A DNA stretch of 64,000 bases from Fidelibacterota bacterium (GTDB lineage: Bacteria > Fidelibacterota > Marinisomatia > Marinisomatales > Marinisomataceae). Positions 27,015 through 63,574 of this stretch are shown here, piece after piece; within the stretch, counting starts at the first letter, position 1, and every line of letters starts with the position of its first letter. A program made the translations under genes and the position numbers. The stretch lies in NCBI GenBank assembly GCA_038280095.1, contig JAYPYG010000001.1:7392-71391 (forward strand), read 5' to 3'. The notes beneath the pieces were generated by a model. The model was not told the origin of the DNA and made no database searches. It worked only from the letters and a program-made list of their open reading frames with translations.

Positions 27015-29480
27015 ATGAAGACTCAGCCGAATTTTACCCCACGAGCACAAGAATCAATACGAGAAGCGAGGTTAATAGCCTTAGAAAACAAGGAGTCCAA
27101 AATAACAATGGACCACTTGACTCTCGGCGTTGTTTCCATAGACAGTGTAAGTATCATAGAATTTTTTGATACCGCTGAAGTTGACCACGTAAAAGCGATT
27201 CAGTACATCACAAATAAAATAAAGCAAAACGGCGGCGATACACCCAAGCAACTCGAACCCGCAGAAGATTTTAAGCGCGTATTGCGAGCATCACACAACG
27301 CATCCATAAAAATGGAACATCCTTATGTTGGGGTGGAGCATATTCTCTTAGCTATATTTGAAGAAGGAGCAAATTCCTTGGTTCACTTTTTGGCGTCAGA
27401 AGGAGTCTCGATGAGAGACGCAAAAAGAATCGTTCAGTCTCGATTTTTAGTTGAAGACGCGGAAGAGGAGAGGTCAATTACAAAAACCCAAGAAAAGAAA
27501 GAGTCCCAAACCCAAGACCCATCCCAAAAGAGGAAGCAGAAAAAAGAAAAGTGTGCCACTTTTGAAAAATTCACCACCAACTTAAATAAGTTGGCGGAAG
27601 ACGGAAAGTTTGATAGTGTTATTGGTAGGAGTTCTGAAATAAAAGACGCGGCAGAGGTATTGTGCCGCCGAAATAAAAACAATCCAATTCTACTCGGAGA
27701 AGCGGGTGTCGGAAAAACCGCAATAGTTGAGGGGTTGGCACAAACAATCATTTTCAGCCAATGCACCAGCTTTCTAGAAAGCAAGACGATTTATGCAGTA
27801 GACCTTGCTGGAATGATTGCTGGAACAAAATACCGAGGTCAATTCGAAGAACGCTTAAAAAAAGTCATTGACGGGGCAGTCAATGACGATGATGCAATCC
27901 TCTTCATAGATGAGATTCATACTTTAATCGGGGCTGGTAGTGCGGAAGGCACTATGGACGCAGCAAACATACTCAAGCCACTTTTGGCGAGGGGCAAAGT
28001 TCGCTGTATAGGAGCCACAACAAGAAAAGAGTACAGGAAAACGATTTTAAAAGACGGAGCCTTAGACAGAAGATTCCAACCAATTATAGTAGAAGAACCG
28101 TCTGAAGAAGACTGCGTGAAAATTCTTAATGGAGTGAAAGCTAATTATGAAAAATTTCACAAAGTCGTTTATCCGCAAGCCGTAGTCAACGAGGCAGTAA
28201 AACTCTCCAGCAGATACATTACAGACAGATACCTTCCAGATAAAGCCATTGACTTGCTTGACCAAGCAGGCTCAAAAGCAAAAATTAGGGCATTTAGAAG
28301 ACCGCAAGAAGCCCTTGACATCGAAAAAGAGATAGAGCGACTTTATCTGTCCGAACAATGCTCAAGCGAACCTCACATTGTAATACGTAAAAAAGAGGAG
28401 CTTGTGAAAAAATACACAGCCATCATGGAGGCTTGGGCAAATGAATCCACATCACGAGCAACAGAGGTTCAAAAATCCGACATTCATAAAGTCTTAACTC
28501 AAAAAACAGGAATTCCCGTAAAAGACATTTCCCAGAGCGAGAAAGAGCGAATCCTTAACCTTGAGCCAAATTTAAACGAAGTAATCGTTGGGCAAGAAAA
28601 GGCAGTCGAGAAATTATGCAAAGCAATCCTGAGAAACAAGGCGGGACTAAACGATAGAAACAAACCCATAGGCTCATTTCTCTTTCTTGGCTCTAGCGGC
28701 GTAGGTAAAACATACCTCTCCCAACAACTCGCCCACTATATTTTCGGTGGCGAAAAAAATGTCATCAAGCTTGACATGTCAGAATATGGCGAAAAAGCCT
28801 CGACCGCGAAAATTACTGGAGCAGTTCCAGGTTATGTTGGGTACGAAGAGGGTAGCAGTATTATCGAGAGAATTAGAAAACAGCCTCACAGCGTCGTACT
28901 GTTCGACGAAATAGAGAAGGCTCACCCAGATGTACTGAATCTTTTACTCCAAATACTAGAAGATGGGCAAATAACAGACAGCTCAGGAAGAACCGCGAGC
29001 TTCAAAAGCTGCGTAATCATCATGACGAGCAACGTCGGTTCTCACCTCACAAAAAAAACCAACACAATGGGCTTTGGAGCATCAAACGACGACAACAACG
29101 AATCCGCTGTTCTTGAAGAAGCGGGAAAAGTTTTCAAGCCAGAGCTGTTGTCAAGAATCGAGTCAAAAGTCGTATTCAACAATTTAAAAGATGAGCAAAT
29201 CAGAAAAATCACAGAGCTTGAATGCGCCAAACTTGAGCGACGAGCAGAAGAAAAAGTGTCTTCAATCCACTTTGATGAAACACTGTATCAACACATATGC
29301 GACAAGCTTTCAAAAGAAAATAATGAATCAGGCGCACGACCTATTCGGACAATCATCAAAGAAGAAGTTGAGCAGCCCCTTGCGGAATCCCTCATCAACT
29401 GCGATTCACCATTTCAAGTCAAGGCAACAATTGCTTTTGATGGAGAGGTGCGCGTTACAATATACGAGGAAAGCGAATGA
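27015..29480 (+). CDS. ClpA/ClpC-type AAA+ unfoldase (Clp_N repeats + two AAA modules)
   Basis: 821 aa. Two Clp_N repeats (ITMDHLTLGVV and VGVEHILLAIFEE). D1 Walker A LLGEAGVGKTAIVEGLA, D2 FLFLGSSGVGKTYLSQQLA. A short coiled-coil linker. The loop TNTMGFGASND lies at the position of the ClpP-docking I/V-G-F/L tripeptide. Confidence 0.9.
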   Translation: MKTQPNFTPRAQESIREARLIALENKESKITMDHLTLGVVSIDSVSIIEFFDTAEVDHVKAIQYITNKIKQNGGDTPKQLEPAEDFKRVLRASHNASIKMEHPYVGVEHILLAIFEEGANSLVHFLASEGVSMRDAKRIVQSRFLVEDAEEERSITKTQEKKESQTQDPSQKRKQKKEKCATFEKFTTNLNKLAEDGKFDSVIGRSSEIKDAAEVLCRRNKNNPILLGEAGVGKTAIVEGLAQTIIFSQCTSFLESKTIYAVDLAGMIAGTKYRGQFEERLKKVIDGAVNDDDAILFIDEIHTLIGAGSAEGTMDAANILKPLLARGKVRCIGATTRKEYRKTILKDGALDRRFQPIIVEEPSEEDCVKILNGVKANYEKFHKVVYPQAVVNEAVKLSSRYITDRYLPDKAIDLLDQAGSKAKIRAFRRPQEALDIEKEIERLYLSEQCSSEPHIVIRKKEELVKKYTAIMEAWANESTSRATEVQKSDIHKVLTQKTGIPVKDISQSEKERILNLEPNLNEVIVGQEKAVEKLCKAILRNKAGLNDRNKPIGSFLFLGSSGVGKTYLSQQLAHYIFGGEKNVIKLDMSEYGEKASTAKITGAVPGYVGYEEGSSIIERIRKQPHSVVLFDEIEKAHPDVLNLLLQILEDGQITDSSGRTASFKSCVIIMTSNVGSHLTKKTNTMGFGASNDDNNESAVLEEAGKVFKPELLSRIESKVVFNNLKDEQIRKITELECAKLERRAEEKVSSIHFDETLYQHICDKLSKENNESGARPIRTIIKEEVEQPLAESLINCDSPFQVKATIAFDGEVRVTIYEESE

Positions 29481-36366: not shown

Positions 36367-36395
36367 TTGACAGTGTTGAGAAAATCGTGTACTAT
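36367..36395 (+). promoter_or_regulatory. consensus sigma70-type promoter of the tmRNA gene (TTGACA-17-TACTAT)
   Basis: -35 at 36367-36372 and -10 at 36390-36395. The mature tmRNA 5' end (36421) is 26 nt downstream, which implies RNase P-type 5' processing. Confidence 0.65.
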
Positions 36396-36420
36396 ACACA
36401 CAGTTCTTTTATATTTAAAC

Positions 36421-36819
36421 GGGGGTGTTATGGATTCGACTTAATACCTGACGACATTTACCGCAAGTCGGAGAGTGCTTGGCTCCGTTATCAAGGCACA
36501 CACGCACAAATGGCAAAACCAAAAGTGTTAAGAAGTTCAACTTCCGCAGCCGCGTCATTGGCGCTCGCCGCGTAAGCCGCAGCTTCGCTCTGGCAGCTTA
36601 AGCTGTCACCTCTCAGCGATTGACGCAGATAGAGCGTTCGAGGGGTCATCCATCTGCAAAGGTAGAAAAAGTTTTTTCGTGGCACAAACTATCTTAAACA
36701 AATAAATGAAACGAAAAGCTAGGAGTCTATACCAAAGCTCAAAATAAGAATAGACTAAACTTGTAGAAGTAATTGATTGATGATTTAAGGACGTGGCTTC
36801 GATGCCACCACCTCCACCA
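36421..36819 (+). ncRNA. ssrA: tmRNA (transfer-messenger RNA, one-piece)
   Basis: - 5' GGGGGTGTTATGGATTCGAC and 3' GGACGTGGCTTCGATGCCACCACCTCCACCA are the hallmark tRNA-like ends.
- The 7-bp acceptor stem GGGGGTG/CACCTCC has a G3:U pair (the Ala identity element), and CCA is encoded.
- The internal tag frame GCA AAA CCA ... GCG TAA (36513-36575) encodes AKPKVLRSSTSAAASLALAA*.
- As I read it, the T-loop is TTCGAT (6 nt), one nt shorter than canonical. Confidence 0.9.
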
Positions 36820-36826
36820 TTTTTTA

Positions 36827-36854
36827 TTGCCAACTCCACCAAATTGTATATAAT
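36827..36854 (+). promoter_or_regulatory. sigma70-type promoter (TTGCCA-16-TATAAT), leaderless geometry
   Basis: -35 at 36827-36832 and -10 at 36849-36854. ATG 36861 is 6 nt after the -10. Confidence 0.5.
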
Positions 36855-36860
36855 ATATCC

Positions 36861-36953
36861 ATGATACTAGATGAAAAGAAAATCAACGGAAGAAAAAATA
36901 TTCTGCTAAGATGCGCCCACTCTGGCGAAAAGTTCTTTGACCAAATAACATGA
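36861..36953 (+). CDS. short ORF (30 aa) translationally coupled to the HNH gene
   Basis: Encodes MILDEKKINGRKNILLRCAHSGEKFFDQIT. Its stop overlaps the HNH start (ATGA at 36950-36953). It is too short for the supplied ORF track. Confidence 0.25.
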   Translation: MILDEKKINGRKNILLRCAHSGEKFFDQIT

Positions 36954-37483
36954 AAGAAGTCTGGAAAGACATTCCTAAATCTAACAGAGACCATCAGGTG
37001 TCTAACCTTGGAAGGGTAAGGTCACTCAAGTTCTCAAAGGAAAGAGTCATGAAGCAATGCGTGCGAAGAAGCTATCCTTCAATTACGCTCTGGCTCAATA
37101 GAAAGCGCAAGCATTTTTTTGTGCACAGGCTTGTGGCAGAAGCATTTATTAAAAACCCCGACAACAAACCCCAAGTAAATCACAAAGACTCGAACAAGAC
37201 AAACAACCATGTGTCAAACCTAGAATGGGTGACGCCTTCAGAAAACATACTTCATCATTACAATTCAAGCAAAGGCAAAAATCGCATTATAGGGATTACG
37301 GGAGAAGGCAACCACGCGTTTAAAGGACATATAGAAGCATACAAAGATGGAGTAAAAATAGAAACCTTTTGCGGGGAAAGGGATATGAAAAAAAAAGGCT
37401 TCGATTCGTCTACAGTTTACGCTTGTGTCAACGGAAAACATAAAACACACAAAGGCTGCACGTTCAAACGAGTCTCAAAATAA
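36950..37483 (+). CDS. HNH homing endonuclease (NUMOD4 + HNH_3)
   Basis: 177 aa. WKDIP...HQVSNLGRVRS is NUMOD4-like. VHRLVAEAFIKNPDNKPQVNHKDSNKTNNHVSNLEWVTPSEN is the HNH_3 signature. Confidence 0.85.
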   Translation: MKEVWKDIPKSNRDHQVSNLGRVRSLKFSKERVMKQCVRRSYPSITLWLNRKRKHFFVHRLVAEAFIKNPDNKPQVNHKDSNKTNNHVSNLEWVTPSENILHHYNSSKGKNRIIGITGEGNHAFKGHIEAYKDGVKIETFCGERDMKKKGFDSSTVYACVNGKHKTHKGCTFKRVSK

Positions 37484-39566: not shown

Positions 39567-40673
39567 ATGAAACCAAAGGAAAGAATGAAAATAGATTTTG
39601 CAGACTACGACTTGTCAGAGTTTCGTGTTCGTGACGTAGTATTTTGTGGCAAAGAAGCGTTACTTATTAACCCAAACCACATTGGCACAAAATTCAATCA
39701 ACGGAACAAAATTTTTCGTTCGTCGATTTGGTCAAAAGATGGCGAATTGCTGTCGGCAGGCTTTCCGAAGTTCAAAAATTGGGGCGAAGACCCAATCGAC
39801 TTCCCAAAGCCAAAGAAGAATAAAATCCATGAAGCAATTTTCACAGTAAAGGCTGACGGCTCTCTGCTTATTTTAGACCGAGTCAACGGACAAGTAAATA
39901 TTCGCTCTCGCGGCGCAGCAGAAGCTTCGGTTTTAGACAATGGCGAAGACTGGCAACTTATTCTCGAAAAGTACCCAAGCGTTTTAGAGTTTACTCTAGC
40001 GAACCCAGAAATGTCACTCCTCTTCGAGATTGTGACGCCAAACAATAAAATTGTTTTAAACTACGGTGAAGAGATTGATTTCTATTTTATCGGTGCAATT
40101 GACAAATCAGACTATTCTTTAGCCACACAACGTCAATTAGACGTTTGGGCCGAGAAGTTAAACCTCAAGCGCCCAGGTTACAACACATTCAAGAATGTGG
40201 ATGAAATCATGGAGTTTGTGGAAAACAATAAAGACTCAGAAGGCTTTGTTATCTATCACGACGGCGACAGAATGACAAAAATCAAGACAGACTGGTATCG
40301 AAAGATTCACTCACTCAAGAGCGAGCTTAGCTCCTTTGAGAAAGTTCTTGACTTTTATCTGGTCAACGGCATGAAAGGTTACGAAGAAACCCTCCAAGAG
40401 GTCACGGACACAATCGACTTTGAGGTATCGCAACAAGTTGCTCCAATGGTCTCGAAAATCTGTGACGCCATGAAACAGGTTCGCATGTTCGAAGCTCACG
40501 CCCGAAAATTCGTTGCAGACCAACCATTAACACGCTCAAAGAAAGACATTGTTCTGGAAATCTTTGAAAAATGGGGTCAAACAAATCGCGCCCACATGGT
40601 AATCTCATTACTTGATGGCAAAGAATTAACTACAAAAGATTATAAAAAACTCTTATTTCAAAAATCTAAATAA
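39567..40673 (+). CDS. RNA ligase, T4 Rnl1-like
   Basis: 368 aa (T4 Rnl1 is 374 aa). Nucleotidyltransferase motif I FTVKADGSLL (K-x-D-G-S-L), motif IIIa SLLFEIV, motifs IV/V EGFVIYHDGDRMTKIKTDWY. Confidence 0.7.
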   Translation: MKPKERMKIDFADYDLSEFRVRDVVFCGKEALLINPNHIGTKFNQRNKIFRSSIWSKDGELLSAGFPKFKNWGEDPIDFPKPKKNKIHEAIFTVKADGSLLILDRVNGQVNIRSRGAAEASVLDNGEDWQLILEKYPSVLEFTLANPEMSLLFEIVTPNNKIVLNYGEEIDFYFIGAIDKSDYSLATQRQLDVWAEKLNLKRPGYNTFKNVDEIMEFVENNKDSEGFVIYHDGDRMTKIKTDWYRKIHSLKSELSSFEKVLDFYLVNGMKGYEETLQEVTDTIDFEVSQQVAPMVSKICDAMKQVRMFEAHARKFVADQPLTRSKKDIVLEIFEKWGQTNRAHMVISLLDGKELTTKDYKKLLFQKSK

Positions 40674-44812: not shown

Positions 44813-46468
44813 ATGAATCCATTATTAGCAACAGATAGCTACAAACAAAGCCACTGCCAACAGTACCCAGAGGGTACGGAAATGGTATATTCCAACCTAA
44901 CGCCGCGCTCTACTAAGTACGCCCCAAAAGCTGAAGGAGCAGACGATAAGGTTGTCAGTATCGGCATTCAGTTTTTTGTCAAAGAATTTTTGATTGCGCG
45001 GTTTAATAAATACTTTTTCAACCGCCCTAAAAAAGAAGTGATTGCAGAGTATGAGCGAGTCATGCGAGCACACCTTGGCAACGACGGGGTCGGCGTAGAC
45101 AAAATCGCCGCGTTGCATGATTTGGGCTATTTACCAATCTGCATTCGCGCACTCCCAGAAGGTTCCGTAGTGAAAGCTGGAGTTCCAGTTATGACCATTT
45201 ACAACCTTTTGCCTGAATTTTACTGGTTGACAAATTATCTTGAGACAATCCTCGCAGGCTACACATGGAAGGCGTCCACAAGCGCTACAACAGCTCGAAA
45301 ATACAAACAAATCGCACTTAAGTATGCTGCTCCAGAAGAGCGTCCAGCGGTCGATGTTCAAGGACACGACTTCTCCTTTAGAGGAATGACGTTTCTTGAT
45401 GACGCTGGAATGAGCGGCTTAGGTCACCTTCTCAACTTCATTGGAACGGACACTATCGCGGCAATTCCATATATTGAGGATTACTACAATTCCGAAGTCG
45501 GAAAAGATTTTGTCGCAATCTCTGTGCCAGCTACAGAACACAGCGTACAAAGTCTTAGAGCAGACTACTCTGGAGAAGAGCCAGATGAACTCGAAAGCAT
45601 TCGAGAATTAATTGAAGACATCTACCCAGAGAATATCGTATCCATTGTTGCAGACACGTTTGACTTCTGGAATATGATTACAGTCAACGCTCGAATATTA
45701 AAGCCAAAGATTCTCGCTCGAACTGGAGAAGCTCCATTTCCACGGGTAGTTTTCCGTCCAGACAGCGGAAATCCAGTAGACGTTCTTTGCGGAAAAGCAA
45801 AGGAAGTTGAAAATCTCACAGAAAATTCCGTATCGACAGCGGCGTTCGAAGGCTTCACGTACGTCAAAAACAAAGGTAAGTTCTTCCAAATCATCAATAA
45901 ATATCCAGCGAGTAATTCTGTAAGCTGGAGAGAGGTGACAGAAGAACTGACAGAGCAGGAAGAAGCCGAGCTTAATGGCGCGGTTGAAACGCTCTGGAAT
46001 ATTTTTGGCGGTACTGTGAATAGCGAAGGTAATCGACTCATGGATTCTCACGTTGGCCTTATTTATGGTGACTCCATCACTCTTGAGCGTGCAGAAATCA
46101 TCTTCCGCCGCCTAAAAGCAAAAGGGTTCAGCACATTGAATGTCGTTCTTGGTATTGGTTCTTTCACCTATCAATGCGTAACTCGCGACACTTATGGTTA
46201 TGCTGTAAAAGCTACAGCGGGAATTGTTTATGGCGATGAAAAATTCATCTACAAAGCACCAAAGACAGACACTGGAGGCTTCAAGAAGTCTGCTCGCGGA
46301 TTCCTTGCGGTTCGCAAAGACGAAAGTGGAGAATACTACTTAGTAGACAAACTCTCCTTTAAAGAGTCTGAGAAAAACACAGAACTTGATGTTGTTTTCT
46401 TCAACGGTGAGCTTCGTCGAGATGAAAACTTCGCAGATATTCGCAAACGCTACCAAAAGACTCTATGA
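44813..46468 (+). CDS. nicotinamide phosphoribosyltransferase homolog (NAMPT/NadV-like; candidate Namat)
   Basis: 551 aa. MNPLLATDSYKQSH, YWLTNYLETIL, GHDFSFRG, NFIGTDTIA, PATEHS, FRPDSGNP and LIYGDSIT all parallel conserved NAMPT blocks. Confidence 0.85.
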   Translation: MNPLLATDSYKQSHCQQYPEGTEMVYSNLTPRSTKYAPKAEGADDKVVSIGIQFFVKEFLIARFNKYFFNRPKKEVIAEYERVMRAHLGNDGVGVDKIAALHDLGYLPICIRALPEGSVVKAGVPVMTIYNLLPEFYWLTNYLETILAGYTWKASTSATTARKYKQIALKYAAPEERPAVDVQGHDFSFRGMTFLDDAGMSGLGHLLNFIGTDTIAAIPYIEDYYNSEVGKDFVAISVPATEHSVQSLRADYSGEEPDELESIRELIEDIYPENIVSIVADTFDFWNMITVNARILKPKILARTGEAPFPRVVFRPDSGNPVDVLCGKAKEVENLTENSVSTAAFEGFTYVKNKGKFFQIINKYPASNSVSWREVTEELTEQEEAELNGAVETLWNIFGGTVNSEGNRLMDSHVGLIYGDSITLERAEIIFRRLKAKGFSTLNVVLGIGSFTYQCVTRDTYGYAVKATAGIVYGDEKFIYKAPKTDTGGFKKSARGFLAVRKDESGEYYLVDKLSFKESEKNTELDVVFFNGELRRDENFADIRKRYQKTL

Positions 46469-59545: not shown

Positions 59546-59862
59546 TGTGCGGAGCAGTTGTAACCATCGTTTTTGTTATAGTTCTTTTGGCTTGGGCCAC
59601 ATACTCTTCAAATCTGGAGGATAATAAGCCAAGTGGCAAAGTAGCAATCATAATCCAAGGCGACCAAGCAGTCTACGCTCAATATGAAGATTCGCTGGGC
59701 GAATGGCATTATTTTACTTGGGAGGGAAGTGTTCCACAAAAATATAAATTTGAGACTTTACAACAAGCCGAAAATTTCCTAAAATACCAAAACATAGTAA
59801 AAATCATCACATCAAAAAAGGTCATCAATTATGAAGACATTAAGCACGAAAACAAAATTTGA
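59545..59862 (+). CDS. N-terminally anchored hypothetical protein (105 aa)
   Basis: TAATG overlap. TM helix GAVVTIVFVIVLLAWATY. Confidence 0.4.
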   Translation: MCGAVVTIVFVIVLLAWATYSSNLEDNKPSGKVAIIIQGDQAVYAQYEDSLGEWHYFTWEGSVPQKYKFETLQQAENFLKYQNIVKIITSKKVINYEDIKHENKI

Positions 59863-61228
59863 AAATTATCAAGCCAAAGTCGTCAAACTAAGCGACTTTA
59901 TTCCACACCCGAACGCAGACCGACTGCATATTGCGGTTGTTGACTTTCAAAACGTCATCACAAGCAAAGAACAAAAAGCTGGAGACTTATGCGTATTCTT
60001 TCCCGTTGAATGCGCAATCAACAAAGACTTCCTAAAGTTTTCTAACTTGTTTGACAAGCCTGAGCTAAATGCAGACCCAACAAAGAAGGGTTACATCAAC
60101 AAGCATGGTCGCATTCGTTGCACTAACTTTCGCGGCACTGCGTCAGAAGGCTACTTACATCCACTTTCAAAAGTGAATGATTGGCTGGCAAATATCGGAG
60201 AATCTGAAATCTCAGAAAAGGACATTGGAACAACCTTTGACACAATCGGCAAAACCCCTTTTGTCACAAAGTACATTCCAGCCTACAATAAGCAAGCAAA
60301 GGAAGCTGGCCAAGGCAAATCCAAAAATGGTGAAAAAGAAAATAAACGCTTAGTTGAAGGTCAATTCCATTTTCACGGAGACACAAGCCATTTGAAGAAA
60401 AACCTCCATACAATCAATCCAGAAGATTTGATTTCCGTTCAATACAAATACCACGGCTCAGCATTTTCATGCGGCAACCTTCTCACTAAGAAAAAACTTA
60501 GCCTGATAAGCAAAGCGGCATACTGGCTTGCAAAAGCTTTTGGGGTGGAAGTGAACGACAAAGAGTACAACTACCTCTGGTCTTCAAGAAGGGTTATTAA
60601 AAACCCAAATCACAACTCCTTTATCAACAAGGATGACGCTTGGACGAAAACAGCTCTTAGTCTTACAGGCAAGATTGAAAGAGGTATCACAATTTATGGC
60701 GAAATAGTTGGATTCAAGCCCAATGGAGCGCCAATGCAAAAAATGGGCGGAAAAGCCTTCGACTACGGCTGCGAACAAGGCGAGAGTGAGCTATATGTTT
60801 ACCGCATTACCCACACAGACCAATTTGGTTCTGTTCGTGAGTTTTCTGTGCCGCAAATCGAACGCTACTGCGCCCAATACGACTTAAAACCATGCCACAC
60901 CTTTTTCTTTGGTAGGGCAGACACCCTCGTTCCATTCTCAGGCGTTGTTCATTCAGACGCAACTCGCGTTATCACGGAGGGCGATGTAGAGGATGCGAAA
61001 AACAAATGGAGGAAAGAGCTTCTCGACTTCATGGTAACTCACTACAACGAGAAGGATTGTTTTATTTGCGAAAATAAGCTTCCAGAAGAAGGCGTTGTAG
61101 TTCGCAAAGACGACAAAACATTCTCAGCATACAAACTCAAAAGCATTCGCTTCCTAGAACATGAAACTATCGAACTCGATAGCGAAACCGCCGAAGTCCC
61201 AGATGACGATAAGGCGGAAGAAGAGTGA
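59831..61228 (+). CDS. RNA ligase, DRB0094/Rnl5-like
   Basis: 465 aa. The N-terminal OB-like module AKVVKLSDFIPHPNADRLHIAVVDFQNVITSKEQKAGDLCVFFP is typical of the DRB0094 family. Motif I is YKYHGSAF (K-x-x-G-S), motif IV YGEIVGF, motif V AYKLKS. Confidence 0.65.
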   Translation: MKTLSTKTKFENYQAKVVKLSDFIPHPNADRLHIAVVDFQNVITSKEQKAGDLCVFFPVECAINKDFLKFSNLFDKPELNADPTKKGYINKHGRIRCTNFRGTASEGYLHPLSKVNDWLANIGESEISEKDIGTTFDTIGKTPFVTKYIPAYNKQAKEAGQGKSKNGEKENKRLVEGQFHFHGDTSHLKKNLHTINPEDLISVQYKYHGSAFSCGNLLTKKKLSLISKAAYWLAKAFGVEVNDKEYNYLWSSRRVIKNPNHNSFINKDDAWTKTALSLTGKIERGITIYGEIVGFKPNGAPMQKMGGKAFDYGCEQGESELYVYRITHTDQFGSVREFSVPQIERYCAQYDLKPCHTFFFGRADTLVPFSGVVHSDATRVITEGDVEDAKNKWRKELLDFMVTHYNEKDCFICENKLPEEGVVVRKDDKTFSAYKLKSIRFLEHETIELDSETAEVPDDDKAEEE

Positions 61229-62650: not shown

Positions 62651-63574
62651 ATGCACGAAATGTGCAATAATGTGCGCTTTATGAAACAAAACAAACTTAC
62701 TCTACTTGCGCTCCAAGGCATTCCAGCTTGCGGAAAATCAACAATCGCTCTTAAACTCGTCGCAGAAGACAATTCATACGTGCGCGTTAATCAAGATGAT
62801 ATGCGTCTGTCTTATTTTAATAGACAGTTTGAGCCGAAGGACGAGCCTTTCATTTATAGAATGAATCTGGAATTAACTCGCCAAGCTCTCGCCGCTGGCA
62901 AGAATGTGGTCAACGATAACACCAACTTCAACCCAAAGACGCTCAAGGCTCTCGAAGCAATCGCTAACGAATTTGGTGCAGAGTTCAAGGTTCAACGAGT
63001 GAATATTTCAAAAGGTGAAGCTCTCAGGCGGGATGAAGTTCGCGAAATGCCTGTTGGCAAAAAGGTAATCAATTTCTTTTGGGAAAAATACATTACGCCT
63101 GAACTCAGGTACAAGACTCCTACATTCGACCCCAATAAAAAAGACGCGATTGTTGTTGACCTTGATGGGACTTTGGCTCATATTAGTGAAAAAGGTCGGA
63201 GCTTCTTTGAATATCACAAGGTTGACGAAGATATTCCAGATAAGGTTATTTGCAGTCTCGTCAGGCAACTCTCGCAAAATCATGCAATCATCATTGTTTC
63301 TGGTAGGGAGAATATGCCCTATAATGACGGAGAAGAAAGCACGGAATCCATTACAAAAGGATGGCTCAAAAGACACAACATTCCATGCGATAAGTTTTTT
63401 CTTCGTAGAAACGGCGACAAGCGCAAGGATTATGATGTCAAGCAAGAACTGTTCTTCGACCACATCGAACCCCTGTATAACGTAATCTTCTCACTTGACG
63501 ATAGGAATCAAAGTGTCAAATGCTGGCGCGACCTCGGAATCAAAACTCTTCAAGTTGAAGACGGGGATTTTTGA
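62651..63574 (+). CDS. polynucleotide 5'-kinase / 3'-phosphatase (T4 Pnkp-like)
   Basis: 307 aa (the start may be ATG 62681). Kinase P-loop LLALQGIPACGKSTIA. HAD phosphatase AIVVDLDGTLA, IIIVSGRE, FSLDDRNQSVKCWRDLGIKTLQVEDGDF, which closely parallels the T4 Pnkp C-terminus. Confidence 0.85.
   Translation: MHEMCNNVRFMKQNKLTLLALQGIPACGKSTIALKLVAEDNSYVRVNQDDMRLSYFNRQFEPKDEPFIYRMNLELTRQALAAGKNVVNDNTNFNPKTLKALEAIANEFGAEFKVQRVNISKGEALRRDEVREMPVGKKVINFFWEKYITPELRYKTPTFDPNKKDAIVVDLDGTLAHISEKGRSFFEYHKVDEDIPDKVICSLVRQLSQNHAIIIVSGRENMPYNDGEESTESITKGWLKRHNIPCDKFFLRRNGDKRKDYDVKQELFFDHIEPLYNVIFSLDDRNQSVKCWRDLGIKTLQVEDGDF

Follow-up and report, generated by a model that had tools for sequence, protein, structure and literature searches.

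The 64,000-nucleotide (nt) stretch of DNA analysed here, referred to below as the window, is taken from contig JAYPYG010000001.1 (positions 7,392 to 71,391, forward strand) of the assembly GCA_038280095.1, filed under Fidelibacterota, and carries a gene for transfer-messenger RNA (tmRNA). A preliminary description, made from the letters alone, had proposed a phage-encoded tmRNA with its own promoter, a long tag and a shortened T-loop. ARAGORN and the Rfam covariance model RF00023 (Infernal), the two checks that it had named, return identical boundaries for a one-piece gene of 399 nt (36421-36819, forward strand; Table 1). The RF00023 match scored 132 bits (gathering score 47, E=2e-51), spanned model positions 1-374 of 374 and was the sole RNA family match within the window; no riboswitch was detected in the same Rfam scan. 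Both ends of the gene, GGGGGTG...GGATTCGAC at the 5' side and GGAC-GTGGC-TTCGAT-GCCAC-CACCTCC-ACCA at the 3' side, are present exactly as had been described, and the G3:U wobble of the 7-bp acceptor stem is kept in 4/4 homologues. The gene is colinear, with its 5' acceptor strand at 36421 and its T-arm and CCA end at 36793-36819, and it matches RF00023 and not RF04321, which with RF01849 represents the two-piece (circularly permuted) class. Besides the model score, the acceptor stem with ACCA, the T-arm, the first pseudoknot (PK1), an open reading frame (ORF) that ends in a degron and the further pseudoknots PK2-PK4 were all found. With a covariance-model match, foldable pseudoknots and a resume-codon context in place, the identification as tmRNA stands.

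Homologues of the gene were located via a 147-aa ORF directly upstream of it, since the contigs of the few homologues of this ORF bear the same tmRNA; a profile search with the family of this ORF returned nothing beyond the 5 proteins already in hand. The tmRNAs of L194 (JGI) and L191 (Logan, a Black Sea water-column sample) are ~97-98% identical to that of the window, and that of L192 (Logan) is 87% identical, its neighbouring protein being just 46% identical; L195 (ENA) includes only the first 44 nt of the tmRNA. The same gene with the same neighbours was found again in five metagenomes. DNA searches of GenBank phages (blastn) gave no match for the tmRNA, its 15-kb flank, or two permuted tmRNAs that share its T-arm. 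Exact-pattern searches of IMG/VR with the 5' 20-mer and with an invariant 19-mer gave 0 matches each, which points to no close relative there, and two matches of the 19-mer on metagenome contigs were discarded as chance, no tmRNA being present. ARAGORN reported no tmRNA at 5 loci that score 80-117 bits with RF00023, and thereby missed 5 of the 11 tmRNAs detected by Rfam across two phage groups. Phage surveys relying on ARAGORN alone would undercount tmRNAs.

In an explicit structure model comprising the acceptor stem, helix 2, PK1-PK4, helix 5 and the T-arm, pairs were counted on the four full-length homologues. Standard pairs were observed in 97.1% of cells, compared with 38-43% in controls with slid partners. 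Six pairs were changed on both sides, a number that 0/500 shuffles reached; the T-stem accounts for four of them, and PK1 stem 2 and helix 2a for one each. Because the model came from the window sequence itself, these compensatory changes serve as the independent structural evidence. The change in PK1 stem 2 replaces G:C by A:U, and a U:G pair of the same stem is additionally C:G in L192. Helix 5 was aligned by cmscan to the Rfam helix that bears the consensus UAA. PK2 and PK4 fold as H-type pseudoknots; the pairs of PK2-PK4 are mostly invariant and supply little covariation evidence, those of PK2 being invariant and hence supplying none. PK3 is the least certain element, with a low posterior probability in cmscan. 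Some variation was also observed around the tRNA-like domain. The conserved GGAC that precedes the T-stem (36789-36792) is ACAC in L191 and UUAC in L192, both of which break the C20-G369 pair, and L192 carries GGAAUCGAC where the window has GGAUUCGAC. In the ~35 nt preceding CACCTCCACCA the window and L192 share ~50% identity, compared with ~93% elsewhere, and the 3' module of L192 looks like a swapped or fast-evolving piece.

The tag ORF is an internal frame without a start codon. Two of its frames end in an ALAA-type degron and the third stops after 5 codons. The preliminary description had followed the frame that ends ...AAASLALAA-TAA and had read there a tag of at least 20 residues, or of 23 if translation resumed at GCA 36504. 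This string does exist, in the frame of GCA 36513. That the tag is long held good, and at 29 codons it is longer than had been claimed; the peptide AKPKVLRSSTSAAASLALAA and the GCA resume codons did not hold, as the frame that resumes at GGC 36512 and ends FALAA-TAA is the one supported. In the cmscan alignment the resume and stop codons of the GGC frame fall at the consensus positions, the stop lying in the UUAA loop of helix 5. Of 10 codon changes seen in this frame among the homologues, 7 were synonymous, where a fraction of 0.24 would be expected (p=0.003 by the binomial, and p=0.008 once a site bordering an indel is left out). The GCA frame had 2/8 synonymous substitutions (expected 0.28, p=0.7), and of five substitutions beyond its stop four were synonymous in the GGC frame. 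The resume context of the window, aaat/GGCAA (the slash marking the resume point), is identical in L174 and L141, whose GGC frame encodes a conserved tag. These two belong to a set of six phage tmRNAs linked to Clp genes, described below, in which conserved 21-22-aa tags all begin with GGC at nt 91-95; the +1 frames of L174 and L141 are junk. Taken together, the translated frame is probably that of GGC 36512, with 29 residues, and the GCA frame, with its 20-23 residues, is probably the wrong frame for the tag. Automated and by-eye tag calls can evidently fall in different frames.

The 3' end of the tag ORF consists of two tandem units (Table 1), which match at 21/26 positions with one 7-nt gap; 0/5000 shuffles scored as high. 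Their five mismatches have period 3 and all lie at third positions of the ALAA frame, and the 3' part of unit 2 forms the 5' strand and loop of helix 5. When unit 1 was removed in silico, an 18-residue tag, GKTKSVKKFNFRSFALAA, remained; when only the 7 extra nt were removed, the GGC frame ended at the LALAA-TAA of unit 1. The repeat indicates that the 3' end of the tag was duplicated in tandem, 33 nt in frame, and that the tag owes its unusual length to this; the simplest reading is that unit 1 was translated as a degron for some time before the 7-nt insertion. Because this insertion pushed unit 1 out of frame, the LALAA-TAA of the GCA frame would be the upstream copy of the degron. L192 retains the out-of-frame degron as LLLAA-TAA, and among 177 other unique tmRNAs sampled none has an alternative frame with a degron of the ALAA type. 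Against the Rfam consensus, cmscan places a 54-nt insertion at 36529-36582, the removal of which leaves GKTKSVFALAA. Most of this insertion lies within a predicted long imperfect hairpin, weakly supported given few variable sites, and a 15-nt in-frame insertion of L192 maps to its apical loop. The most frequent tmRNA tag length is 10 (PMC11915505), and in two samples of viral-contig tmRNAs ~10% had tags of at least 20 residues, with a maximum of 30. The GGC frame bears some likeness to the B. subtilis tag and to that of L146, and the GCA frame to a Coprobacillus tag (L218), at p ~0.01-0.03 uncorrected for ~11 comparisons. The gene offers a clear example of tmRNA tag lengthening via in-frame tandem duplication.

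The T-loop had been read as 6 nt rather than 7, and this was borne out: cmscan records a 1-nt deletion against the consensus, and the same loop is found in L194 and L191, i.e. in three independent assemblies. The U:A pair of the T-stem in the window is C:G in L194 and L191, and 4/5 stem pairs are doubly changed across the homologues. Since the closing pair covaries (C:G or U:A), a true 6-nt loop is supported over a 4-bp stem with an 8-nt loop. UUCGAU retains the U54-A58 core of the TPsiC-type loop, the RF00023 consensus loop being 7 nt long. L192 has ACGAG-UUCGAAU-CUCGU, with a 7-nt loop, and the length is thus not fixed within the clade; in the Clp-linked family the loop is likewise 6 nt in L174, L108 and L141 and 7 nt in L265, L346 and L325, L108 and L325 being 82% identical. 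The exact 31-nt 3' end of the window gene occurs in 17 IMG/VR contigs, all with permuted two-piece tmRNAs. A recent acquisition of the T-arm from permuted phage tmRNAs was considered and rejected, as the identity ends at the 31-mer. A degenerate pattern of fixed length for the 6-nt loop matched 105 IMG/VR stretches, of which ARAGORN called 61 permuted and 3 one-piece and missed others; the Rfam consensus of permuted tmRNAs has a 7-nt T-loop. Among ~185,000 bacterial species a one-piece tmRNA with a T-arm one base short was found at only 55 loci, some of whose short T-arms, having G/C runs, can be drawn in other ways. These are mostly metagenome-assembled genomes (MAGs) of gut/rumen Bacilli/Erysipelotrichaceae, with some Omnitrophota, Marinomonas, Psychromonas and Desulfovibrio. 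Many of the gut/rumen MAGs (among L198-L252) have the T-arm GGU-UUCGAY-ACC and the tag DNSYMRAPRAQSLCLA, which ends LCLA and not ALAA. Since many tmRNAs that are otherwise intact have the 6-nt variant, the length of the loop varies and does not define the class, and the comparison identifies the 6-nt T-loop as a recurrent, tolerated variant in phage tmRNAs, common in permuted ones. In two separate phage clades close relatives differ in having 6 or 7 nt, which suggests that the tRNA-like domain of tmRNA tolerates what canonical tRNAs rarely do. Eight of the permuted contigs with the same 31-nt 3' end (L001, L004, L006, L008, L010, L013, L014 and L017) have a tRNA-Arg(UCU) gene 250-520 nt downstream; the tmRNA and this tRNA gene form a conserved pair in uncultured, probably aquatic, phages.

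The promoter that had been noted upstream, TTGACA-17-TACTAT, is present, with 25 nt separating its -10 hexamer from G1. Both hexamers are invariant in L194, L195 and L191, and the spacer differs at 5 positions. L192 has TTGACA-17-TATAGT at an equal distance despite an unrelated flank, the promoter overlapping the end of another ORF. Taken overall, the hexamers are kept in five relatives with divergent flanks. Within the presumed start and leader region, CACACAGTTCTTTTATATTTAAAC is kept in all homologues. Beyond the gene lies a second promoter close to consensus, TTGCCA-16-TATAAT, kept in L194, L191 and L192. From the conservation of these promoters the tmRNA gene is judged to be an autonomous transcription unit, read by a sigma-70-type holoenzyme. 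The motif TCCACCA occurs twice within 22 nt (36813-36841), in the tmRNA 3' end and in the spacer of the second promoter, and three times in L192 (2208-2270), where a 34-nt insert with CCCGCCATGTCCACCA is additionally present; the expected frequency is ~0.2 per 3 kb. These repeats could be recombination scars at the tmRNA 3' end. The downstream GCCAACTCCACCA was considered as a tmRNA 3' end displaced by integration and was rejected, as it sits in the spacer of the near-consensus promoter. A homing-type endonuclease gene lies directly downstream of the tmRNA gene, and L191 has an HNH/NUMOD4 endonuclease 59% identical to it. Following the tmRNA gene in the window is a small ORF (36861-36953; MILDEKKINGRKNILLRCAHSGEKFFDQIT), which is an internally deleted remnant of a 196-aa ORF intact in L191; it keeps the N-terminal 25 aa and the C-terminal FFDQIT of the latter, and the endonuclease gene is next in both.

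The window is 93% coding, almost all of it on one strand, with phage-type genes on both sides of the tmRNA for >30 kb. Its replication and recombination genes encode a DnaB-like helicase, a primase, a single-stranded-DNA-binding protein, a UvsX-like recombinase and the alpha subunit of DNA polymerase III (Pol III); those of nucleotide metabolism encode both subunits of ribonucleotide reductase, thymidylate synthase and a deoxynucleoside monophosphate kinase. Genes for NAD salvage and host takeover comprise PhoH, NAMPT, phosphoribosyl pyrophosphate synthetase and Srd-like anti-sigma or sigma-70-decoy proteins, the last with PHROG matches to 'Srd anti-sigma factor' and 'decoy of host sigma70'. 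Also present are genes for one virion structural protein (PHROG), HNH endonucleases and glycosyltransferases, and two sulfotransferase-like ORFs. A T4-like RNA-repair set consists of a polynucleotide kinase/phosphatase (AAA_33 and HAD_PNKP), an Rnl1-type RNA ligase and a second RNA ligase (PHA02142 OB-fold and RNA_ligase); together with the tmRNA it suggests a phage equipped against host attacks on tRNA, mRNA or translation. An apparent 1-kb gene-free gap after the gene for the large subunit of ribonucleotide reductase proved to be the ORF of the small subunit, with no RNA family match. Genes for an integrase, for tRNAs, for SmpB or for bacterial core functions were not found, either in the window or in the further 8 kb of its 72-kb Logan contig; capsid and terminase genes were likewise absent from these 72 kb. 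The gene content of these 64-72 kb resembles that of a large lytic phage, in support of the phage origin that had been proposed for the gene, and the contig is very likely that of a phage. Protein matches to GenBank phages reach only 27-33% (Pol III alpha) and 38-46% (Clp) identity, and the phage is therefore novel.

The preliminary description had also hoped that comparison of the tag with bacterial tmRNAs would reveal the host lineage. No host could be inferred from it, the tag similarities being marginal. A pattern joining the PK1 motif with TGGCAAAACCAAAAG gave 0 matches in the ~185,000 bacterial species, and the similarity of bacterial tmRNAs to that of the window, including the 55 loci with a short T-arm, was confined to the tRNA-like domain. 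Its statement that phage tmRNA genes are rare needs correction: they are known from 2.3% of sequenced phage genomes (402/18,146), two-piece forms being typical of marine phages (PMC9004378), and tmRNA and SmpB have been reported in huge phages (PMC7162821).

Upstream of the tmRNA, on the same strand, the window encodes an 821-aa AAA+ protein with the Pfam domains Clp_N, AAA, AAA_lid_9, AAA_2 and ClpB_D2-small. Its best solved homologue is B. subtilis ClpC/MecB, which aligns end to end (E=2e-181), and its MGF motif stands opposite the ClpP-docking loop VGF. Two AAA+ modules, Clp_N and a docking loop [LIVM]-G-[FL] in D2 place it with the ClpC-type unfoldases, a subfamily assignment that rests on the PDB match, the protein scoring below the NCBIfam equivalog cut-offs for ClpB, ClpA and ClpV. 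No ClpP gene was seen in the window. When this protein was searched against 225 tmRNA-bearing viral loci, six matches of 41-46% identity were obtained (L174, L265, L346, L325, L108 and L141), and at each of these loci a one-piece tmRNA of full length (80-117 bits with Rfam) follows the Clp gene on the same strand, 2.1-3.6 kb further on. The window has the same order, Clp gene then tmRNA, with a gap of 6.9 kb. The linkage of Clp and tmRNA genes is real for a subset of phages, about four lineages by tmRNA divergence. In the six IMG/VR contigs the order is ClpC-like ATPase, M20/M42-like metallopeptidase, a protein of 350-600 aa of unknown function and one-piece tmRNA, and one of their GGC-initiated tags of 21-22 aa reads GNVLDKMETLGLVRESEVTVA. 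We know of no description of this Clp-peptidase-tmRNA module. GOLLD RNAs (RF02032) adjoin tRNA genes 0.1-3 kb from the tmRNA in L174, L346 and L325. The window has no GOLLD match and no diverged M20-like peptidase or member of the 350-600-aa family; it has only the Clp gene in common with the six loci.

Table 1. Coordinates of the tmRNA gene, its elements, neighbouring genes and the loci used for comparison (positions are those of the window unless a locus is named).
Feature	Position	Strand	Basis
Sigma-70-type promoter, TTGACA (36367-36372), 17-nt spacer, TACTAT (36390-36395)	36367..36395	+	10/12 consensus positions
-10 hexamer to G1; presumed transcription start and short 5' leader that RNase P would remove	36396..36420	+	
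One-piece tmRNA gene, encoded CCA end	36421..36819	+	ARAGORN, RF00023, structure model
Acceptor stem 5' strand GGGGGUG, pairs with 36809-36815 (CACCUCC), includes G3:U	36421..36427	+	7/7 pairs in 4/4 homologues
PK1, stem 1 CGGAG/CUCCG, stem 2 GUGCUU/AGGCAC	36469..36499	+	100% paired, all homologues
Tag ORF, best-supported frame: resume GGC 36512-36514, 29 codons (GKTKSVKKFNFRSRVIGARRVSRSFALAA), stop TAA 36599-36601	36512..36601	+	ARAGORN, cmscan, substitutions, relatives
Alternative (+1) frame AKPKVLRSSTSAAASLALAA-TAA from GCA 36513, stop 36573-36575	36513..36575	+	Probably a relic, not the main frame
Predicted long imperfect hairpin in tag ORF	36532..36586	+	RNAalifold, one compensatory pair
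Duplication unit 1, 33 nt, in frame: CCGCAGC + CGCGTCA + TTGGCGCTCGCCGCGTAAG	36544..36576	+	
Duplication unit 2, 26 nt: CCGCAGC + TTCGCTCTGGCAGCTTAAG, with in-frame FALAA-TAA	36577..36602	+	
Helix 5, UGGCAGC-UUAA-GCUGUCA, stop codon in loop	36591..36608	+	7 pairs, 96% of cells paired
PK2, CCUCUC/GAGGGG + AGCG/CGUU, and GCAGAU/AUCUGC	36609..36657	+	96-100% of cells paired
PK3 (proposed), GGUAG/CUAUC + UUUUCG/CGAAAA	36661..36717	+	96-100% of cells paired
PK4, GCU/AGC + GUCUAU/AUAGAC	36718..36755	+	100% of cells paired
T-arm, 5-bp stem GUGGC/GCCAC, 6-nt loop UUCGAU (36798-36803)	36793..36808	+	cmscan, covariation
Acceptor stem 3' strand CACCUCC, discriminator and CCA (ACCA), then TTTTTT	36809..36819	+	Sequence, pairing count
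Second promoter, TTGCCA-16-TATAAT, for downstream genes	36827..36854	+	11/12 consensus positions
HNH/NUMOD4 homing-type endonuclease	36950..37483	+	PHROG 59, E=3e-44; Pfam NUMOD4 and HNH_3
ClpC-type double-AAA+ unfoldase, 821 aa, MGF motif at residues 685-687	27015..29480	+	Pfam, PDB match
T4-like RNA-repair set	62651-63574, 39567-40673, 59831-61228		Pfam/profile matches
One of the ORFs for NAD salvage, PhoH, thymidylate synthase, sulfotransferase-like, glycosyltransferase or Srd-like proteins	44813-46468		
Clp-tmRNA blocks of IMG/VR	L174 6029-10899; L265 1688-6451; L346 161-4312; L325 1674-6429; L108 3095-9084; L141 57-4595		
GOLLD RNAs	L174 13991-14383; L346 6680-7086; L325 1131-1537		RF02032, 294-325 bits
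tmRNAs missed by ARAGORN	L191 824-1222; L108 8666-9084; L141 4199-4595; L325 1674-2083; L346 3921-4312		RF00023, 80-117 bits
196-aa ORF and endonuclease region	L191 1266-2389		

Based on these observations, we consider it likely that the gene specifies a working ribosome-rescue RNA of a large uncultured aquatic lytic phage, which adds a 29-residue tag in the GGC frame. Host RNA polymerase would transcribe the gene from the conserved sigma-70-type promoter, the 5' leader would be trimmed to G1, and the alanyl-tRNA synthetase (AlaRS) of the host would add alanine via its determinant, the G3:U pair, which is present. The RNA would then enter stalled ribosomes together with SmpB, which is presumed to be supplied by the host because none is encoded in the 72-kb contig. 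Translation would resume at GGC 36512, as the frame comparison supports, add (A)GKTKSVKKFNFRSRVIGARRVSRSFALAA and stop at the UAA in the loop of helix 5. The C-terminal ALAA degron may route the products to Clp-type proteases, possibly to the phage ClpC-like unfoldase acting on host ClpP.

Several observations weigh against this interpretation. With no match to the SmpB family among the ORFs of the window or the contig flanks, function would rely on host SmpB. A conserved degron of the ALAA type also closes the +1 frame and has to be taken as a relic in this model, and a basic tag of 29 residues with an internal hairpin is atypical. The comparison includes only four full-length homologues, three of them near-identical, so that the substitution statistics rest on ~13 sites, and the paired percentage is biased upward, the structure model having been drawn from the window's own sequence. 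The loss of GG in the GGAC motif of L191 and L192, and of the C20-G369 pair, could reflect relaxed constraint. Finally, 0/80 other Clp-bearing viral loci have a tmRNA within 10 kb (ARAGORN, then regular expressions and nhmmer), and the link of the ClpC-like protein to the tag, of which it is a possible functional partner, is purely positional. If functional, it would mean phage-controlled proteolysis of tagged proteins. A bolder version of the idea, to which we give only a small chance, is that some large aquatic phages possess a 'tag and destroy' module of linked genes, a ClpC-type, ClpP-docking unfoldase with, downstream on the same strand, a one-piece GGC-initiated tmRNA, whose unusually long tag bodies would be recognition elements for the phage unfoldase and not for host ClpX/SspB, with the out-of-frame LALAA-TAA as a fail-safe in the clade of the window. 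Such a module would let the phage itself clear the products of ribosomes stalled during host takeover, or recycle them into amino acids, and would in one subgroup include the M20/M42-like peptidase encoded between Clp and tmRNA.

The rival explanations differ first in the frame that is read. If translation resumed at GCA 36513, the RNA would add AKPKVLRSSTSAAASLALAA and stop at TAA 36573-36575, the FALAA-TAA being merely the 5' strand of helix 5. The Rfam model has GCA (Ala) as its consensus resume codon, the frame is open and ends LALAA-TAA (LLLAA-TAA in L192, where ARAGORN picks it), the five differences between the duplicated units all fall at third positions of the ALAA frame, and there is a weak likeness to the Coprobacillus tag AKPSYFESARSTPSLALA (p ~0.01 uncorrected), which is, however, lost after correction for ~11 comparisons. 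This frame nevertheless shows no coding constraint, the substitutions past its stop instead following the GGC frame; its stop lies outside the loop of helix 5; no degron is left in it once the in-frame 33-nt unit is removed; and the six related Clp-linked tmRNAs all use GGC. We therefore regard it as unlikely. It is also conceivable that the choice of frame is imprecise, for example with a non-cognate host SmpB, and that the out-of-frame LALAA-TAA is kept as a fail-safe, so that resumption at either GGC or GCA yields an ALAA degron. The absence of such an arrangement from the 177 other tmRNAs, its retention in both diverged lineages (window and L192), the synonymous position of all mismatches in the ALAA frame (~1% by chance), the early stop of the third frame, and a -5 position without the U of the consensus context UAAuU/GCa all speak for this. 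A tandem duplication followed by a 7-nt insertion, however, accounts for the repeat without selection, the invariant block CTCGCCGCGTAAG has other reasons to be conserved, since it codes in the GGC frame too and belongs to a predicted hairpin, and the independent lineages are just two; we hold such a use of both frames to be decidedly improbable.

Other readings deny the gene a role in rescue, or the phage its ownership. The RNA may act as a decoy or as a regulator, in competition with the host tmRNA for ribosomes, AlaRS or SmpB, or the gene may be decaying. A tmRNA of mycobacteriophage DS6A that lacks a coding sequence was reported to inhibit endogenous tmRNA (PMC11915505). The deviant GGAC motif of L191 and L192, the failure of ARAGORN on L191, the absence of an SmpB gene from the contig and the shortened T-loop are compatible with either. 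Against them, all hallmarks are intact and covarying, purifying selection acts on the tag ORF, whose ALAA end is followed by a stop in the loop of helix 5, the promoter is conserved, and the 6-nt T-loop is widespread in otherwise intact tmRNAs, which makes this account very unlikely in our view. It would be hardly credible that the contig is bacterial, or a junction of prophage and host, and the tmRNA the host's own ssrA. tmRNA genes are indeed frequent integration sites (PMC11915505; PMC3146451), and no capsid or terminase gene lies within the 72 kb examined. Each flank, however, carries >30 kb of phage-type genes, on one strand and 93% coding, with no bacterial housekeeping genes and no integrase found; no similar tmRNA occurs in ~185,000 bacterial species, and the gene recurs with its neighbours in five metagenomes.

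In architecture the tmRNA of the window is like the standard one-piece bacterial tmRNA, as in E. coli SsrA and B. subtilis SsrA (tag AGKTNSFNQNVALAA). It shares with these the 7-bp acceptor stem with G3:U, the encoded CCA, the D-loop-like GGAUUCGAC, helix 2, PK1, PK2-PK4 and the T-arm, as well as a tag ORF that ends in ALAA with its stop in the loop of helix 5. Its tag starts G-K-T like that of B. subtilis (PMC8767453), a similarity that is statistically marginal. Unlike bacterial tmRNA, it has a T-loop of 6 nt and not 7, a tag of 29 codons and a 54-nt insertion in the tag ORF, and its gene is phage-encoded with no SmpB gene nearby.

Phage tmRNAs are known but have been little studied functionally; they include the two-piece tmRNA of OM43 phage Melnitz and those of pelagimyophages (PMC9004378). 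Like known phage tmRNAs, the window gene is a complete ssrA closely preceded by an early-type promoter, in a large phage that looks lytic, and its source is aquatic, as judged from the Black Sea origin of L191. With permuted phage tmRNAs it has in common the 31-nt 3' end, 6-nt T-loop included, that was found in 17 of them in IMG/VR, whereas unlike those of Melnitz and pelagimyophages it is one-piece and not permuted. The six Clp-linked tmRNAs of IMG/VR resemble it in the upstream same-strand ClpC-like ATPase, the GGC resume codon and the long tag. They differ in that global identity is only 43-48% and the tag sequences are unrelated, and in that the window is without the M20/M42-like peptidase, the 350-600-aa gene and GOLLD and has the wider gap (6.9 as against 2.1-3.6 kb). 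The phage-encoded one-piece tmRNA is thus a class already known, to which this gene, judged by comparison of sequences, adds three modest variant features and the lead of a Clp-tmRNA link.

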